From: a virus
Strand: one strand, 5' to 3'
DNA: 37,009 nt
Virus record (IMG/VR): IMGVR_UViG_3300045988_084160
Coordinates: 1 to 37,009 of that record
The number at the start of each line of letters is the position of its first letter. Within the stretch, counting starts at the first letter, position 1. The notes under the pieces were generated by a model. It saw only the letters and a program-made list of their open reading frames with translations, did not search any database and had not been told where the DNA came from. Both the position numbers and the translations under genes were made by a program. This document shows, in pieces, positions 30,410 to 36,195 of the stretch.

Positions 30410-30613
30410 ATGAGTGACAAGACAAAGAAATGGATTAAGGCAGCAGGTGTCAGAGCTGTAAAAACAATGGCACAGACATTTATTGCAACAATCGGTTCTG
30501 CAGCAGTGTTAGCAGCAGTTGACTGGAAGGTGGTTGTGTCAGCAACAGTACTTGCAGGAATATTAAGTGTGGCAACATCAGTGGCAGGATTGCCGGAAGT
30601 GGAGGAAGAATAA
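30410..30613 (+). CDS. Holin (r1t-like family)
   Basis: W.KAAGVRAVKTMAQTFIATIG...VDWK....ATVLAGILSVATSVAG resembles the r1t holin pattern. Acidic tail. Lies upstream of the endolysin. Confidence 0.6.
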   Translation: MSDKTKKWIKAAGVRAVKTMAQTFIATIGSAAVLAAVDWKVVVSATVLAGILSVATSVAGLPEVEEE

Positions 30614-31068
30614 TGAAGAAATATGTAGGAACAAAAATTATTGAAGCAACAGAAATGAATAGAGGAGATTATAACAAATATCGAGGTTGGAACATTCCTG
30701 AAAATGAGAATCCAGAAGATGAAGGATTTCTGGTTAAGTATTCAGACGGATATGAGAGTTGGAGCCCTAAGAAGCAGTTTGAAGAGGCATATAGAGAATA
30801 TGATAAAACAAAGTTGCCCTCAACAGCAGTATTAATGCAGAGCAACGATTATAGGGAAAGATTCAAGGCAGAGTATTTACAGCTTGTAATAAGATATAAA
30901 GGATTAAAGGCAATGATTGAAAAGTGGGACAAGGGAACATTGGCATTTAATCCTACTTGTCCTAGAAGCACTTATAACATGCAGATAAATGCTATGTCAG
31001 AGTATATTGCAATTCTTGAAGCAAGAGCAGTTATGGAAGATATTGATTTAGAAAGTGAGGTATATTAA
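30613..31068 (+). CDS. 151-aa conserved phage protein of unknown function between holin and endolysin
   Basis: ATGA overlaps on both sides. N-terminal YRGW.IPENE.PEDEGFLV.Y.DGYESWSPK..FE.AY. C-terminal helical part with a FNPTCPRS motif. Confidence 0.6.
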   Translation: MKKYVGTKIIEATEMNRGDYNKYRGWNIPENENPEDEGFLVKYSDGYESWSPKKQFEEAYREYDKTKLPSTAVLMQSNDYRERFKAEYLQLVIRYKGLKAMIEKWDKGTLAFNPTCPRSTYNMQINAMSEYIAILEARAVMEDIDLESEVY

Positions 31069-31586
31069 TGAAGATGTACAAGAGAATGGCTAAATCAATC
31101 AGCTATTCACCGACCAAAAGAAACAGAAAAGATGTAAAATACATAGTTATTCATTACACTGGAAATAGCAACGATACGGCCAAAAACAATGCTGATTATT
31201 ACGCTACAGGAAACACAAGACTTGCCGGAGCACATTTCTTCGTAGATAAGTTAGGAAACACAGCCAGAAGTATTCCAATGAACAGAACAGCATGGGCAGT
31301 AGGCGGGGCTAAATACGCCGACTGCAAAGCTACAGGCGGTGGAAAGTATTACAGCAAATGTACAAATTACAATTCAGTCTCAATTGAATTATGTGGATGT
31401 ACAGAAGCAGAACCTTATACGAAAGAGCAGGCAGCAGCAGTTAAGCGATTAATCAAATACATTCGCAAATACTGCCATAATGCACATACAGTTATACGTC
31501 ATTTTGACGTTAACGGAAAACATTGCCCGGCTCCGATGATGAACGAAAAAGTATGGAAGAAATTTAAAAAGGCAATTGGCGAATAA
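31068..31586 (+). CDS. Endolysin, N-acetylmuramoyl-L-alanine amidase (Amidase_2/PGRP type)
   Basis: IVIHYTGN..., AHFFVD, SIELCG and RHFDVNGKHCP are Zn-amidase hallmarks. Confidence 0.85.
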   Translation: MKMYKRMAKSISYSPTKRNRKDVKYIVIHYTGNSNDTAKNNADYYATGNTRLAGAHFFVDKLGNTARSIPMNRTAWAVGGAKYADCKATGGGKYYSKCTNYNSVSIELCGCTEAEPYTKEQAAAVKRLIKYIRKYCHNAHTVIRHFDVNGKHCPAPMMNEKVWKKFKKAIGE

Positions 31587-31908: not shown

Positions 31909-33363
31909 TTAGTCGTTAATATAAAAATACATCAACAATGCCCCACCTTTTTTATCATATACAATTTTATCAACAACACTGGTCAAAGCGTCATGCTTTT
32001 GTCTGTCAGTTGAATTGTCTGATTTAATAATATCGTATGCGGAGCGTATTTTGTTCAAAAGAATGCTTTCATTTTCATCTTCAGGCTTCTTTGAGTACTG
32101 CTCCAGCATTGCGGTTAATTGTTCACGTTCCCTTTGTAATATTTCTTTATTTGCTTTGTATTCTTCAAGCGTATCAATTCCATCTCTATATGCTTCTTTA
32201 ATACGTTCTTCCTTCATACCTATTCTGTTTAATTTATTTTCAATTAATTCGCTTTCTGATTTTTCTTCCTGATTTGTAGAATGTACAACATATTCTACTG
32301 TGCCACTATCAAGAACCTTCTGCAAGGCTTCCAAAATGGCAGGTTTAAGAGCATTTTCATTTGTAAGGTGCGATTCGTTGCAGGAAGCGTGATTGTATGC
32401 TGTACATTGAAAATATGTATTGCCTGATTTACTTTTACCGGCTCTGACAAGTCGACCACCGCAGGCGGAACACACAAGAAGTCCTGACAACCAATGTTTG
32501 TATGTTGATGCCGGTCTTACTTTTTTACCGGGTCTGTTTGTTGCTTTATCTCTTTCCTGTGCAGCAGTAAACAATTCGTTAGATATAAATGTATCATGTC
32601 CACCATCAGTAACAATCCATTCAGATTTATCTTTGACGTTTCGTGTAGCGTGTTCTAATCTGTTCCATATTATTTTACCATTGTAAAATTCATTTCTAAT
32701 AATGTAAGCTACTGTTCTGTTTTGGAACTTTCCGTTTCTTTTAGTTCTATATCCAAGAGCATTTAATTTGACGGCAATATCAAAAAATGACATTTTATCA
32801 TCTACATACCATGTAAATATCTTTTTTACTATTTCTGCCTGCTCAGGTACAATTACAGGTATTCCATCCTGCATTTTATATCCAAGTGGTGGGGCAGCGT
32901 TATAACCGCCTCTGGATGCTCTTTCAGTCATTCCACGCATTACCTCGCCTGAAAGGTTGATAGAATAGTATTCGTCCATCCATTCAAATATACGCTGTAC
33001 TAATTCACCGATAAAACCATCAGGGATAGGTTCTGACACCGAAACAACGTCAACGTCAGCTTTTTTGAGTAGATTCTTATAAACTATAGCTTCTTCCTGA
33101 TTACGTGCAAAACGGCTGAATTTCCACACAAGAATAATGTCTATAGGATGTTCATCGCTTTTGGCCATTGCTATAAGCTCCTGAAAAGCAGGACGGTTGT
33201 TTGCCTTTCTTCCAGAAATGCCATCATCCTGAAAAATGAATTGCTTTGGTATTATTATGTTATTTTTCTTTGCGTATTCAAGACCAAGACGTATCTGTGC
33301 ATCAGGAGAATATTCTACCTGGTCGTCTGTTGAAACTCTGACATATAATGCTCCTGTCTTCAT
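31909..33363 (-). CDS. int: Large serine recombinase (integrase)
   Basis: N-terminal resolvase motif ALYVRVSTDDQ, a recombinase domain, the zinc ribbon CSACGG...C...C, and a C-terminal coiled coil. Confidence 0.9.
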   Translation of the reverse strand: MKTGALYVRVSTDDQVEYSPDAQIRLGLEYAKKNNIIIPKQFIFQDDGISGRKANNRPAFQELIAMAKSDEHPIDIILVWKFSRFARNQEEAIVYKNLLKKADVDVVSVSEPIPDGFIGELVQRIFEWMDEYYSINLSGEVMRGMTERASRGGYNAAPPLGYKMQDGIPVIVPEQAEIVKKIFTWYVDDKMSFFDIAVKLNALGYRTKRNGKFQNRTVAYIIRNEFYNGKIIWNRLEHATRNVKDKSEWIVTDGGHDTFISNELFTAAQERDKATNRPGKKVRPASTYKHWLSGLLVCSACGGRLVRAGKSKSGNTYFQCTAYNHASCNESHLTNENALKPAILEALQKVLDSGTVEYVVHSTNQEEKSESELIENKLNRIGMKEERIKEAYRDGIDTLEEYKANKEILQREREQLTAMLEQYSKKPEDENESILLNKIRSAYDIIKSDNSTDRQKHDALTSVVDKIVYDKKGGALLMYFYIND

Positions 33364-33448
33364 ATTTCATCACTCCTTTATGTATTTTATGAAAAAAGGG
33401 TATAAAAATAACACCTAGCCTAAGAACAACAGTTCTGATTGACCGGGT

Positions 33449-33507
33449 GCTCCAAAGAATGATAAAATACAACTTGTCTAGGGTGGTATTTAATATCGCT
33501 TTGGAGC
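33449..33507. other. Candidate attP: 59-bp imperfect dyad
   Basis: Outer arms GCTCCAAAG / CTTTGGAGC are perfect. Inner arms share GATA..AAATAC.AC, giving about 20 of 25 symmetric positions per half-site. Lies 86 nt upstream of int. Confidence 0.35.
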
Positions 33508-33574
33508 TGGTCCTAGTGGCTGGCTCTTTTTTAGTATATTGACAAAAATTGCTAATTGAGGTGTATGTTTGCTG

Positions 33575-33602
33575 ATGTTTCCGACATTAATGTCGGAAAC
33601 AT
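33575..33602. repeat. Perfect 28-bp palindrome ATGTTTCCGACATTAATGTCGGAAACAT followed by GTATTTTTT
   Basis: Read directly. Could be a plus-sense terminator or a protein-binding site. Confidence 0.6.
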
Positions 33603-33669
33603 GTATTTTTTCAATTTCATAAATAAAGTTTTTTTGAAACTTTTTATTAAATGTGTCTGTCTATTTAAC

Positions 33670-33687
33670 CCCCTCGAATTCGAGGGG
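33670..33687. repeat. Perfect 18-bp palindrome CCCCTCGAATTCGAGGGG abutting the -35 box of the small-RNA promoter
   Basis: Read directly. It ends 1 nt before TTGACT. Confidence 0.6.
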
Positions 33688-33688
33688 A

Positions 33689-33716
33689 TTGACTAAAACC
33701 TCTGATTTGATATAAT
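33689..33716 (+). promoter_or_regulatory. Strong promoter TTGACT-16 nt-TATAAT with an extended -10 (TGATATAAT)
   Basis: Read directly. Points toward the 3' end of the 29-aa peptide gene. Confidence 0.65.
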
Positions 33717-33722
33717 ATACTT

Positions 33723-33820
33723 AACAAGAGAACCGAAAGCTAGACGAAACCTAGCCGCCGGCAAATAAGTGTTAAAAAATAGTGCCTTACTTTACCAGAG
33801 CAGGGGCACTATTTTTTGTG
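33723..33820 (+). ncRNA. Candidate antitoxin small RNA (~100 nt), convergent with the 29-aa peptide gene
   Basis: Bounded by the promoter and a shared terminator, with no ORF. Contains GCAAATAAGT (33761-33770) and CGAAAGC (33734-33740), complementary to peptide codons 6-11 (33868-33882). Confidence 0.45.
33774..33817. terminator. Bidirectional intrinsic terminator
   Basis: 13-bp stem AAAAAATAGTGCC / GGCACTATTTTTT. The A-run and T-run arms give a U-tract in either direction. Overlaps the last three codons and the stop of the peptide gene. Confidence 0.7.
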
Positions 33821-33898
33821 TGAGAAATAAGTAATAACAAGAGCTATCACACTGCACAACATTGTCACGAAAGCAAATAAGTCGCTATATGTAACCAT
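33809..33898 (-). CDS. 29-aa hydrophobic peptide, type I toxin / Hol-Tox-like (MVTYSDLFAFVTMLCSVIALVITYFSHKK)
   Basis: GAAAGGGG SD 9 nt upstream of the ATG. One transmembrane helix plus a C-terminal KK. Resembles the small holin-like toxin peptides of Firmicutes. Not in the ORF track. Confidence 0.55.
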   Translation of the reverse strand: MVTYSDLFAFVTMLCSVIALVITYFSHKK

Positions 33899-33969
33899 TG
33901 GCACCAACCCCTTTCTTTTGTAAAGTCCGGCAGTTGGAATGTCGCCCCTTCGGTTCTCCGGGTAAGTAT

Positions 33970-33998
33970 ATTATATTTTCAAAGTGTAGATTAAGGTA
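33970..33998 (-). promoter_or_regulatory. Weak promoter for the peptide mRNA (TATAAT -10, poor -35)
   Basis: The -10 box and first ~45 transcribed nt are an inverted copy of the small-RNA promoter/leader (33711-33761 versus 33927-33975). Confidence 0.4.
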
Positions 33999-34016
33999 AA
34001 ACTTAAATCATAAAAC

Positions 34017-34784
34017 TTATTTGCTTAATTCTAAAATGTAATCATTTCTTTTACTCCATAAAACAGGAACAATTGAATATTCCTTTAATGCACTTAGAGC
34101 TTCTTTGGAAATTGGTTTTTCGAAATCCTGAATAAATGTGTATAATTGCGATTTGTTTTTTCTTTCTTCGACAGTATCAGTCCAAGAGAAAATTATATTT
34201 TTAGCCTGCGTTGTATCAAAATTATTAATAACTTTAATAATGCGTTCAGGAGCAACATTTGATTTACCAATACCAAAATCATAATTACTCATTAGTTTGC
34301 TTTTTCCACTAAAAGAAACATTTTCAATATAACGAATATTATTAATGTCAAGAAAATTTTGCACATCCTCAATAAAAATAGATTTAACATTTTTACGTGA
34401 TAAGTAAAACATATCGCTAACTTTTATAATACATTGAGATAACATATGTTTTGATTGAGCTAGAGAATCACGGGAACATGTTATATATAATTCGTCATTT
34501 TTAGAAAAAGAAACTCCATGAGCTGCCAAGATAGAATCAAAAATTTCTCTTCTTCTGGTACCAGTAAAAATGTCAAATTGTGATAACTTTAACTCATTTA
34601 TTGTTTCAGAATCATCTGTAATATAATAGCGTTCATCATCTAACAGTTTTATAAAAAGTTCTATACAATCATTATTTCTATCTAGAAATGGTAAAGTTAA
34701 TCGATACACAGTATCTGAAATTTTGTATTGCTCAATATTTTCATTTAACCAATTAATATATATTTTTTTAAAATCTTTTTCCAT
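34017..34784 (-). CDS. 255-aa protein, DUF1828-like N-terminus and DUF1829-like C-terminus, function unknown
   Basis: YRLTLPFLDRNNDCIELFIK...ITDD resembles DUF1828 (recalled, not verified). The start is coupled to the upstream stop (TAA-T-ATG). AAGGTG RBS. Confidence 0.6.
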   Translation of the reverse strand: MEKDFKKIYINWLNENIEQYKISDTVYRLTLPFLDRNNDCIELFIKLLDDERYYITDDSETINELKLSQFDIFTGTRRREIFDSILAAHGVSFSKNDELYITCSRDSLAQSKHMLSQCIIKVSDMFYLSRKNVKSIFIEDVQNFLDINNIRYIENVSFSGKSKLMSNYDFGIGKSNVAPERIIKVINNFDTTQAKNIIFSWTDTVEERKNKSQLYTFIQDFEKPISKEALSALKEYSIVPVLWSKRNDYILELSK

Positions 34785-34785
34785 A

Positions 34786-35232
34786 TTAAATCACACCTTG
34801 TATATTCGAATCATTAATTGATATGTTACAATATTTACAAAAATCAAAAAAGATTGTAGTAAAATCATTTGAATTCTTAAACAGTATAGCATCTATTTCA
34901 TTTAATTCATATGCCCAAGACATTCCGTAACCTTCTTTGAAAATATGCATATGATTTCTGGAAAGTTTTTTCCCATCAGGATTTATATGTGGTCTGCCGT
35001 CAATTTCTAATCTGATCATTAAATCGTTATTTGGAATTAATCTTTCCTGTAATTTTTTTCGGCTTAGCACTATGGTATTTTTCCTGCAAATATCTAGAGA
35101 AAAAGTTTCTTTGGAATTAATAGCTCCTACAGGTATACATATTTCCTCATTCATGCCAGGAAGAATTAAGCTATTAAGTAAAATATGTTTATCTAGTTTC
35201 ATTAAGTTATTAAATTCTTCATTTGTTTTCAT
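34786..35232 (-). CDS. 148-aa His-rich protein of unknown function
   Basis: ATG 35232 lies 5 nt after AAAGGAG (the track ORF starts 15 codons earlier). Core RLEIDGRPHINPDGKKLSRNHMHIFKEGYGMSWA. I faintly recall a DUF (possibly DUF6978) with this core; unverified. Confidence 0.6.
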   Translation of the reverse strand: MKTNEEFNNLMKLDKHILLNSLILPGMNEEICIPVGAINSKETFSLDICRKNTIVLSRKKLQERLIPNNDLMIRLEIDGRPHINPDGKKLSRNHMHIFKEGYGMSWAYELNEIDAILFKNSNDFTTIFFDFCKYCNISINDSNIQGVI

Positions 35233-35260
35233 AAAATCTCCTTTATTCGGTTTTAGTATA

Positions 35261-35461
35261 TTAATCTTCCGGTTCAATTAATTCTTCCATAGTACAATTC
35301 AAAGCTTTGGCTAGTTTGTATACTGTAATGGCAGATGCTTTATTTATATTTCGCTCTCCACTTTCATATTTAGTTATAAGAGAACGACTTACACCGCTTA
35401 GCTGAATTAATTGGTTCTGGCTTAAATTCTTTTCTTTTCGTATATTTTGCAGATTACTCAT
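35261..35461 (-). CDS. 66-aa XRE-family HTH regulator
   Basis: IRKEKNLSQNQLIQLSGVSRSLITKYESGERN is a classic HTH_3 motif. Confidence 0.8.
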   Translation of the reverse strand: MSNLQNIRKEKNLSQNQLIQLSGVSRSLITKYESGERNINKASAITVYKLAKALNCTMEELIEPED

Positions 35462-35541: not shown

Positions 35542-36195
35542 TTAAAATTTCCCACGTAGCTCTACAACCTTACCTATGATTTTAACAGGCTTTTCCTGAA
35601 TTTCCTTATTTGAAAAATACATAGGGTCGTAATTTGGGTTGTTGGATATAAGAACAATACCATCGTTATATTTTTTTAATCGCTTGCATGTAGCTTCATC
35701 ACCGTTAACAGTTGCGATAACTATATCACCATCTTCTGCATCGGATTGCTGACGAACGATAACAACATCGTTTTCACACATTCTAGGCTCCATAGAATTA
35801 CCTTTTAGCTTTAGACCGAAGAATGTACCGCTTGATGCAAGTTCTTCTGTTATTTCCTCTGTGTCAATAATATCTTCTATAGCTTCTATTGGAATACCGG
35901 CAGCAACACGACCAAGTACCGGAATGCGAATGCCAGTAGATTTCTTTGTTGATGAATTATCTTCATGTTGCTCAAATTCAAATGTTTCATCATCAAACCA
36001 ATAAGAAGTATTTACTTTAAATGCTGCTGAAAAAGCACTTAATTTACTTTGGGGTAAATCAACTAGACCTTTTTCTATTTTCGCAATAGATGTTTTGTCT
36101 TTATAGCCAACTTTCAAGGCTAATTCAGTTTGAGATAATCCACATGTTTCACGTAAATTTTTAATTTTTAAACCAATCTTTTGCTGTAGAGTCAT
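35542..36195 (-). CDS. CI-type prophage repressor: XRE HTH plus LexA-like S24 autopeptidase
   Basis: N-terminal LRETCGLSQTELALKVGY..KTSIAKIEKG. C-terminal GRVAAGIPIEA (Ala-Gly cleavage context), GNSMEP (Ser) and CKRL (Lys). Confidence 0.9.
   Translation of the reverse strand: MTLQQKIGLKIKNLRETCGLSQTELALKVGYKDKTSIAKIEKGLVDLPQSKLSAFSAAFKVNTSYWFDDETFEFEQHEDNSSTKKSTGIRIPVLGRVAAGIPIEAIEDIIDTEEITEELASSGTFFGLKLKGNSMEPRMCENDVVIVRQQSDAEDGDIVIATVNGDEATCKRLKKYNDGIVLISNNPNYDPMYFSNKEIQEKPVKIIGKVVELRGKF

Follow-up and report, generated by a model that had tools for sequence, protein, structure and literature searches.

Introduction

Holin-like toxins constitute the TxpA family of type I toxin–antitoxin (TA) systems, which takes in members of only 27 amino acids (aa) such as BH0344 and EF3263; EF3263 and TxpA are both toxic, a small RNA (sRNA) of ~110 nt has been detected at the 3' untranslated region (UTR) of EF3263, and TxpA-like sequences are present in Clostridiales (Fozo et al., 2010; PMC2887945). 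Here we analyse a locus of related design in a 37,009-nucleotide stretch of viral DNA (IMG/VR record IMGVR_UViG_3300045988_084160, positions 1 to 37,009; ‘the window’ below), in which a minus-strand gene for a 29-aa peptide and a plus-strand gene for a predicted sRNA converge. We judge it quite probable that this locus is a self-contained type I TA cassette of ~290 bp, an unnamed branch of the TxpA/Hol-Tox superfamily that has a par-like layout and is carried by a Lachnospiraceae prophage.

The likeness to TxpA/RatA covers both partners. The peptides have the N-terminal signature M-x-T-Y-(E/S)-x-L in common, consist of a single helix with a basic tail and, for the short TxpA members of 27 aa, are similar in size; a convergent sRNA of ~100–110 nt overlaps the toxin 3' end, here over 33774-33819 including the stop codon; and both systems lie on prophage-like elements. 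They differ in that the sRNA here has no Rfam match and the overlap is confined to the ~45-nt terminator. Since antitoxin RNAs are rarely conserved between branches, the absence of RatA homology is not an argument against a shared mode of action. We know of no description, from a check that was not exhaustive, of a promoter and leader mirrored between toxin and sRNA in TxpA systems, as is the case here.

The layout also recalls par (Fst/RNA II of Enterococcus faecalis pAD1), in which convergent promoters and a shared bidirectional terminator give complementary stem-loops, direct repeats in the DNA make the RNAs complementary in a second region, and an intramolecular 5' structure sequesters the Shine–Dalgarno (SD) sequence (Weaver, 2020; PMC7472228). 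In contrast to Fst, the present peptide lacks the PXXXG and conserved Trp hallmarks, and Pfam scans of the family peptides gave no Fst-family match, only Hol_Tox and weak unrelated matches. The conserved direct repeat targets mid-open reading frame (ORF) codons 19-22, whereas in par it targets the start region, and the sRNA is ~100 nt long rather than ~40-65 nt. Unlike in par, the leaders here are inverted repeats, so the two RNAs share leader sequence and are not complementary there.

As in SprA1/SprA1AS (PepA1) of Staphylococcus aureus, where the antitoxin is in large excess (PMC7472228), a cis-encoded convergent antisense RNA lies over the toxin mRNA's 3' end. In that system the toxin is Fst-like and contact is made at the translation start region. 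SprA1AS is reported to act through its non-overlapping 5' domain, which offers a model for contact by the sRNA 5' end here, and to our knowledge it has no mirrored leader. In hok/sok fold-back inhibition and in Helicobacter aapA1/IsoA1, the full-length toxin mRNA is inert through pairing of its 5' and 3' ends, a likeness that would apply if the fold-back model considered below is right; the toxins of those systems are unrelated, their hosts are Gram-negative, the antitoxin lies over the 5' region and no promoter is duplicated.

Results

Convergent organization of the cassette

The peptide gene, encoding MVTYSDLFAFVTMLCSVIALVITYFSHKK, occupies 33809..33898 on the minus strand, with a TAG stop codon at 33809-33811. 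A first-pass annotation of the window had described a 29-aa ORF with one helix, a KK tail and a good SD, all of which are present: the product contains one hydrophobic helix and ends in KK, and the SD, AAAGGGG (33908-33914), lies 10 nt upstream of the ATG. An in-frame TTG three codons upstream of the ATG is too near the SD, and conservation in relatives begins exactly at the ATG. The gene is preceded by a -10 box, TATAAT, at 33970..33975 with no recognizable -35, and the predicted 5' UTR of the toxin mRNA (33899..33967) contains the leader ACUUACCCGGAGAACCGAAGGGGC and, at 33929-33937, an anti-SD segment, CCAACUGCC.

The plus-strand promoter (33689..33716) is directed towards the 3' end of the peptide gene and is near consensus, as had been noticed at first pass, with a -35 of TTGACT, a 16-nt spacer and an extended -10, TGaTATAAT (11/12 consensus matches, with TG). 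The predicted sRNA of ~100 nt (33719..33819, its start and end placed from the promoter and terminator) would consist of a single-stranded 5' end, ACUUAACAAGAG; two helices, P1 (33733-35 / 33759-61) and P2 (33739-43 / 33751-55); an A/U-rich linker (33762-33773); and the terminator. The last of these is the shared bidirectional intrinsic terminator at 33774..33817, a perfect 13-bp inverted repeat (33774-33786 / 33805-33817) that encloses a 4-bp inner stem and is flanked by A- and T-runs. Its hairpin forms in the predicted folds of both RNAs, and the last codons and stop of the peptide gene sit inside it. Because the transcripts converge on one terminator, the two RNAs are fully complementary over ~45 nt (33774-33819).

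This arrangement is not due to chance: the cassette recurs in ~90 independent loci, the sRNA fold has z = -3.6, the ORF shows coding selection and the RNA helices covary.

Distribution of the cassette

Both the peptide and its mirrored leaders occur elsewhere. With an exact 20-mer from the ORF start as the only probe, a cassette of ~275-290 bp was found in 22 IMG/VR viral contigs and at 68 genuine loci in genomes of the GTDB species set; the 20-mer gave 69 genome matches, one of which (L042) was a chance match and was left out. Nearly all of the genome loci are from Lachnospiraceae (Roseburia, Blautia, Dorea, Pseudobutyrivibrio, Faecalicatena, Muricomes, Fusicatenibacter, Coprococcus and others), with a few in bins assigned to Oscillospiraceae or Ruminococcaceae, and chromosomal copies are common. 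Cultured carriers include Faecalicatena contorta JCM 6483 (L099), Muricomes intestini DSM 29489 (L097), Roseburia hominis An869 (L107), Pseudobutyrivibrio sp. ACV-2 (L050, L062) and Brotonthovivens ammoniilytica (L086). A protein search, with the peptide written twice as the query and hence approximate E-values, returned 36 proteins, every one with MVTYSDLF...(K/R)KK. The spurious N- and C-terminal extensions of these proteins are translated conserved flanking DNA; the extension GEPKG corresponds to GGAGAACCGAAGGGG, and GSLVKYII to the reverse complement of the sRNA promoter-leader.

The neighbourhoods of the cassette are unrelated to one another and include ilvC/ilvH, leuS, a tyrosine integrase beside a cI-like repressor and, in the window, a serine integrase. 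BLAST comparison with all loci showed that homology across unrelated contexts is limited to ~33705-33985 of the window, from arm to arm of the inverted repeat. Tandem cassettes at ~300 bp spacing were also seen, in three copies at L040 and L077 and in two at L044, L052, L069 and L090, and L010-L015 carry a second, degenerate copy ~1 kb off. Tandem arrays are known for several type I toxin families.

Gene callers miss or mis-call the cassette, and the sources name its product just ‘hypothetical’, the cluster names for the family being ‘hypothetical protein’ only. Scanning the whole window against Rfam 15 gave no family at the gathering score; at E <= 10, RUF4 and ohsC matched weakly on hairpins (the ohsC-like match on the terminator had E = 0.53) and no antitoxin family, RatA included, appeared. 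No match was obtained by blastn, megablast or tblastn against GenBank phages and PLSDB plasmids, NCBIfam had no match to the peptide, PHROGs gave weak matches only (holin phrog_3488 at E = 0.06-0.09), and a full-text literature search found no mention of MVTYSDL.

Selection on the peptide and its relationship to Hol_Tox

Among 64 distinct ORFs, entropy by codon position was 13.2 / 7.5 / 21.4 for first, second and third positions, highest at the third and lowest at the second. Lengths differ by whole codons, with 58 of the 64 peptides falling between 26 and 34 aa; the other six are stop-loss or frameshifted forms of 33-59 aa. The codon-position entropy and the whole-codon length changes together indicate that the peptide gene is a coding gene under purifying selection. 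Its stop codon, TAG in 45 of the ORFs and TAA in 19, is embedded in the terminator stem.

The proposal that the product is a Hol-Tox-like type I peptide finds support at the level of the family. Pfam Hol_Tox (PF16935) is matched at E <= 1 by 16 of 26 family members, with a best E of 1.1e-7. Four divergent members, which have the same cassette and the invariant MVTYSDLF N-terminus, score 27-32 bits and so exceed the gathering score, while the main subfamily, like the window peptide, lies below it (14-15 bits). A sequence taken to be that of Bacillus subtilis TxpA scores 31.3 bits on the same model. Membership of the Hol_Tox/TxpA superfamily is thus transitive, through divergent members that pass the threshold and share the N-terminus and cassette.

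At a set of chromosomal loci (L010-L017, L044, L052, L056 and L099) the stop codon has changed from TAG to CAG and the peptide, of 40-59 aa (...KKQRPCPGKIRRYF...), is extended through the terminator, in the stem of which the change retains a G-U pair on the sRNA strand. These stop-loss copies may be decaying, or may represent a C-terminally extended variant.

Promoters and folding of the two RNAs

The asymmetry between a strong sRNA promoter and a weak toxin promoter, read at first pass from the window alone, extends to the family. In the 24 loci with enough flank for promoter statistics, the sRNA promoter has a mean of 10.9/12 consensus matches and reaches at least 10/12 in 92% of loci, with TATAAT in 22/24 and a 17-nt spacer in 18/24. 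The toxin promoter has a mean of 8.0/12 and no -35, and at least 10/12 is reached in only 4% of loci.

The sRNA is predicted to fold with -28.1 kcal/mol (z = -3.57). RNAalifold analysis of 56 sRNAs revealed compensatory changes in P1 (CCG:CGG; GC47/GU5/AU3) and in P2 (GCUAG:CUAGC; CG37/AU9/UA4/GC3), and the inner stem of the terminator covaries as well (CG24/UA16/GC10/UG4/AU2). The first ~13 nt, which include the ‘seed’ discussed below, are mostly unpaired in the predicted folds. In the minimum free energy (MFE) fold of the window sRNA, the 5' end pairs with the sRNA's own linker, a helix that was dropped as a candidate: the best such helix averaged 4.43 bp against 4.17 expected and was found in 21/56 MFE folds. 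The terminator U-run is longer in the sRNA direction than in the toxin direction (mean 5.43 vs 4.05); it is 5-6 in 35/37 loci in the former, and at most 3 in 11/37 loci in the latter.

In the toxin mRNA, a helix between the anti-SD segment and the SD (CCAGCUGCC with GG.GCUGG) covaries strongly across 58 mRNAs analysed with RNAalifold; pair 45:73 occurs as CG23/UA23/UG10 and pair 43:75 as six pair types. The same method predicts that AACCG in the leader pairs with UGGUU at the start codon.

These data bear on whether the unit could be a mobile repeat resembling a miniature inverted-repeat transposable element (MITE), with terminal inverted repeats around ~210 bp and an incidental ORF, promoter and terminator. 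An inverted-repeat-bounded unit of ~275 bp does recur in many contexts and in tandem. Yet the ORF is under purifying selection, RNA helices covary, the sRNA -35 box is conserved although it lies outside the repeat, and there are 1-3 diverged copies per genome with no target-site duplication seen. We regard this explanation as highly improbable and reject it on the grounds of coding selection and covariation.

Candidate contacts outside the terminator

All helices of at least 6 bp between the sRNA and the mRNA were projected on the family alignment. The only contact found in ~90% of main-subfamily loci was between the sRNA 5' end, UAACAAGAG (33722..33730, plus strand; the ‘seed’), and the ORF site CUCUUGUUA (33835..33843, minus strand) in codons 19-22, which in DNA form a 9-nt direct repeat. 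This helix has 9 bp in the window and at least 6 bp in 88-92% of 48 main-subfamily loci, and in one clade (L082, L097 and L100) it has changed on both sides, to AAGGG/CCCUU. A small hairpin (AUAGC-UCUU-GUUAU in the window) is predicted at the ORF site, which falls within its loop and 3' arm.

The first-pass annotation had missed this match and had instead pointed to GCAAATAAGT (at 33761 and 33873) and CGAAAGC (at 33734 and 33868), direct repeats that would let the sRNA pair with codons 6-11. They are present in the window, where the sRNA linker GCAAAUAAGU (33761..33770) is complementary to codons 6-9 (33873-33882), and there the linker-ORF match has z = -3.3, equalled by 1/100 shuffles. The match is absent from the nearest relative, L001, and occurs in this phage lineage only; as a family feature it was rejected, with a family mean of z = -0.5 and no distinction from a reverse-complement decoy (Wilcoxon p = 0.71). 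Of the resemblance to par/Fst and TxpA-RatA that had been drawn from the window, convergence, the shared terminator and the 3' overlap stand, and the repeat at codons 6-11 is not conserved. Similarly, homologous loci keep the mirrored leaders and lose the 10-nt and 7-nt complementarity, a loss that the first-pass annotation had itself listed as counting against its proposal. The codon 6-11 match would thus be lineage-specific at best, and by its conservation the 9-nt seed match appears to be the better candidate contact.

Duplex energies computed globally for the sRNA 5' domain, with the start region or the ORF as partner, gave z-scores of too little power and were dropped; even the covariation-supported cis anti-SD pairing reaches only z = -1.0.

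The direct repeats of the window are nearly in register, with a spacing of 113 nt for 33722/33835 and 112 nt for 33761/33873, so that in this lineage the sRNA could clamp the ORF at two sites, with P1-P2 facing a 38-nt ORF segment. AAGCAAATAAGT recurs a third time, inverted, at 34015-34026, where it overlaps the DUF1829 stop codon ~45 nt upstream of the toxin -10 and is a perfect 12-nt inverted repeat of 33871-33882. Transcripts reading through from the defence genes described below would carry a 12-nt cis complement of toxin codons 6-10.

Mirrored promoters and leaders

The promoter-leader regions of the two genes form an inverted repeat, 33710..33737 on the sRNA side and 33949..33976 on the toxin side, in which 28 nt are 89% complementary. 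The leader motif has only two copies in the window, where 0.26 are expected. The similarity that had been traced out to ~33761/33927 at first pass is weaker in the window, and the family alignment confirms it as homology.

Within a locus the two leaders have evolved together. Cognate leaders are more alike than non-cognate ones (9.2 vs 4.5; 0/2000 permutations reach the observed value), as is seen in the matched variants GAACCGAAG/GAACCGAAA, GAGCCGGUG/GAGCCGGUG, GAACCGUUGG/GAACCGUUGG and GAGCCAAUGG/GAGCCAAUGG, and both leaders have changed together in the divergent subfamily. The mirrored leaders are real, conserved and co-evolving within each locus.

Inverted repeats ~210 bp apart are recombination substrates, and the leaders could be kept alike by gene conversion or recombination of inverted promoter copies, with no function; that the co-variation extends to unpaired bases fits this neutral homogenization. 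Other blocks, nevertheless, are leader-specific and stay different throughout the family (CCNGGGG vs ACAAGAG; GGGGCGAUAUG vs GCUAGAUGAAG), which argues against simple gene conversion: with flanking blocks co-varying, conversion tracts would be only a few nt long. Transitions between the leaders are also strongly directional, 150 having G/U in the toxin leader and A/C in the sRNA leader and just 24 the reverse (13 positions are biased this way and 5 the opposite way), which conversion is not expected to produce. We consider neutral homogenization unlikely.

Pairing of the toxin leader with the RNA complement of the sRNA leader would tolerate G-U wobbles, and the G/U bias is the outcome to be expected from it. 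Tentatively, then, the mirrored leaders may be the arms of a hok-like 5'-3' panhandle in a longer toxin-sense transcript. Transcription past the terminator, weaker in the toxin direction, and on into the sRNA leader's antisense would give a long RNA that is inert and fully complementary to the sRNA. A hypothetical 256-nt read-through toxin RNA folds into exactly this leader panhandle (-82.5 kcal/mol, z = -4.3, against z = -1.9 for the terminated toxin mRNA), the toxin direction has the shorter terminator U-run, and the leaders co-vary even where they are unpaired in each RNA alone. Against such a fold-back, in the window six U still follow a strong 13-bp terminator hairpin, the repeat takes in the -10 box, which is not transcribed at the 5' end, two fixed transversions break the helix, and no conserved terminator lies past the sRNA promoter in the toxin direction. 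The bias could, moreover, stem from structure specific to the toxin leader (CCGG:CCGG pairing, G-runs).

More doubtfully, the sRNA 5' domain could be a co-evolving paralogue of the inhibitory 5' UTR of the toxin that acts in trans on the SD/start region or, alternatively, competes for the same RNase or RNA-binding factor; the 3' overlap would then be secondary, as in SprA1/SprA1AS. The likeness of cognate leaders in the permutation comparison and their joint change in the divergent subfamily suit such a mimic, as does the motif (A/G)(A/G)CC(G/A), which occurs in both leaders and is the one that RNAalifold pairs with the start-codon UGGUU in the mRNA. sRNAs of the ‘UUG’ clade have a leader that matches the start region over 10 contiguous pairs (AACCGUUGGC / GCUGAUGGUU). 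The duplex energy of the sRNA 5' domain with the start region, in contrast, barely beats that of shuffles (z = -0.64), the relevant sRNA bases are locked in P1 and P2, and the bases immediately before the AUG fail to follow the variable leader triplet across clades. This last result also led us to drop a common target in the start region as the cause of leader co-variation.

It is possible, then, that the mirroring is functional, as a fold-back lock or as a trans mimic, and that the antitoxin RNA gene is an inverted paralogue of the toxin promoter and 5' UTR, maintained and co-evolving with them, although we would not call this probable. If true, a Gram-positive fold-back lock supplied by the antitoxin's own leader, or a trans mimic, would be a principle not described for type I systems.

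Genomic setting

The cassette lies in a prophage lysogeny region, between a serine integrase (serine recombinase; 31909-33363, minus strand) and a cI/LexA-like repressor with an S24-peptidase domain (35542-36195, minus strand). Next on the repressor side (34017-35277, minus strand) come matches to the PADLOC candidate defence pair PDC-M24B/A, namely a 255-aa DUF1828/DUF1829 protein and a 163-aa DUF6978 protein (E = 2.5e-84 and 1.2e-35), and then a gene for a small helix-turn-helix (HTH) protein (35261-35461). Sister prophages (L028 and L081) join the cassette straight to the repressor; the defence pair is thus a variable insert and the TA cassette a stable neighbour. The lysis region, a crAss001_48-related 151-aa protein followed by an Amidase_2 endolysin (30613-31586, plus strand), lies just left of the integrase, and the peptide gene is not part of it.

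Directly upstream of the sRNA -35 is a 140-bp segment (33548-33687) that is present in L025 and missing from seven 95-99% identical prophages (L022, L026, L029, L033, L034, L038 and L039). It is bounded by a direct repeat, ATTGAC(A/T)AAA, at 33538 and 33688. Within it lie a hairpin from a perfect 14-bp palindrome, with a T-run (33575-33602), and a further palindrome, CCCCTCGAATTCGAGGGG (33670-33687); the segment resembles a small insertion or deletion.

Between the integrase start and the cassette (33386-33535, plus strand) we also noted a LexA/Cheo-like palindrome, GAACAACAGTTC (33424-33435), a plus-strand promoter, TTGACC-18-TGaTAAAAT (33439-33468), and a long hairpin with a terminator (33503-33527). 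These sequence features suggest a possible second RNA of ~60 nt or an SOS-controlled element. The LexA-box and promoter segment is 77-79% conserved ~100 nt from the cassette in L054, L086 and L088, where no integrase is present. As a general part of the system the LexA/Cheo-like box was dropped, being found at 9/83 loci only (this phage lineage plus L054 and L088).

Discussion

Comparison across the family supports well the classification of the cassette as a type I TA system, and from the sequence we infer its expression, transcript ends, toxicity, antitoxin action, the RNases and the biological role. The weak minus-strand promoter, with a -10 box only, would give an mRNA of ~190 nt whose 5' UTR folds back on the SD and start-codon region, and translation of the 29-aa membrane peptide would thereby be held in check. 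The near-consensus plus-strand promoter would supply the ~100-nt sRNA in excess; this would pair with the mRNA 3' end, like RatA with txpA, leading to duplex-dependent degradation, and its single-stranded 5' end would pair with the ORF hairpin at codons 19-22. Should the element be lost or the sRNA fall, the peptide would be made, and the ensuing membrane damage would stabilize the prophage or abort growth.

Several findings count against this interpretation. On the side of the peptide, the window peptide, at 14 bits (E = 0.046), misses the Hol_Tox gathering score of 23.3; in a profile-to-TxpA comparison just 8 N-terminal residues align, with 8% probability; and the loss of the stop codon at about eight loci implies that the short peptide is not strictly required everywhere. 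On the side of the RNAs, pairing energies outside the overlap are weak (z about -0.5 to -0.8), linker-ORF pairing is no family feature, and the seed contact is reduced to 4-5 bp, and largely lost, in the ‘AAGACAG’ subgroup, while its two-sided change to AAGGG/CCCUU may be one evolutionary event.

It is also conceivable, if quite unlikely, that the peptide is not a toxin and is instead a small membrane protein involved in superinfection exclusion or in modulation of lysis or transport, whose expression the RNA tunes. Some candidate type I proteins are not toxic and toxicity can be species-specific (Fozo et al., 2010; PMC2887945); the commonness of chromosomal copies and the weak matches to PHROG holin phrog_3488 point the same way. 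The peptide, however, shares homology with the TxpA/Hol_Tox family, and the members of that family that have been tested, TxpA and EF3263, are toxic when overexpressed; the layered repression of its gene (no -35, a sequestered SD, a strong antisense promoter) is typical of toxic peptides; and the gene lies in the lysogeny region, outside the lysis cassette.

For a TA cassette so placed, stabilization of the prophage is likeliest as a role, by analogy with Clostridioides difficile, where type I TAs carried by prophages (e.g. CD0977.1-RCd11) contribute to prophage maintenance (Peltier et al., 2020; PMC7699646); like the present cassette, these are type I TAs on Clostridia prophages, and they are proposed there to maintain the element.

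Type I TA systems are almost uncharted in the dominant gut Firmicutes, and the cassette represents an unannotated family there. Annotating it would improve the annotation of both prophages and genomes, and its presence flags a likely stabilizing or abortive-infection function in the prophage lysogeny region. It may also provide a compact counter-selection or stabilization tool for Lachnospiraceae, which are hard to engineer. The co-evolving mirrored leaders offer a case in which to ask how the 5' region of a target gives rise to its own antisense regulator and how the two remain matched; the family is widespread in gut Lachnospiraceae of humans and animals, and these leaders are the part of it that could prove to be new biology.

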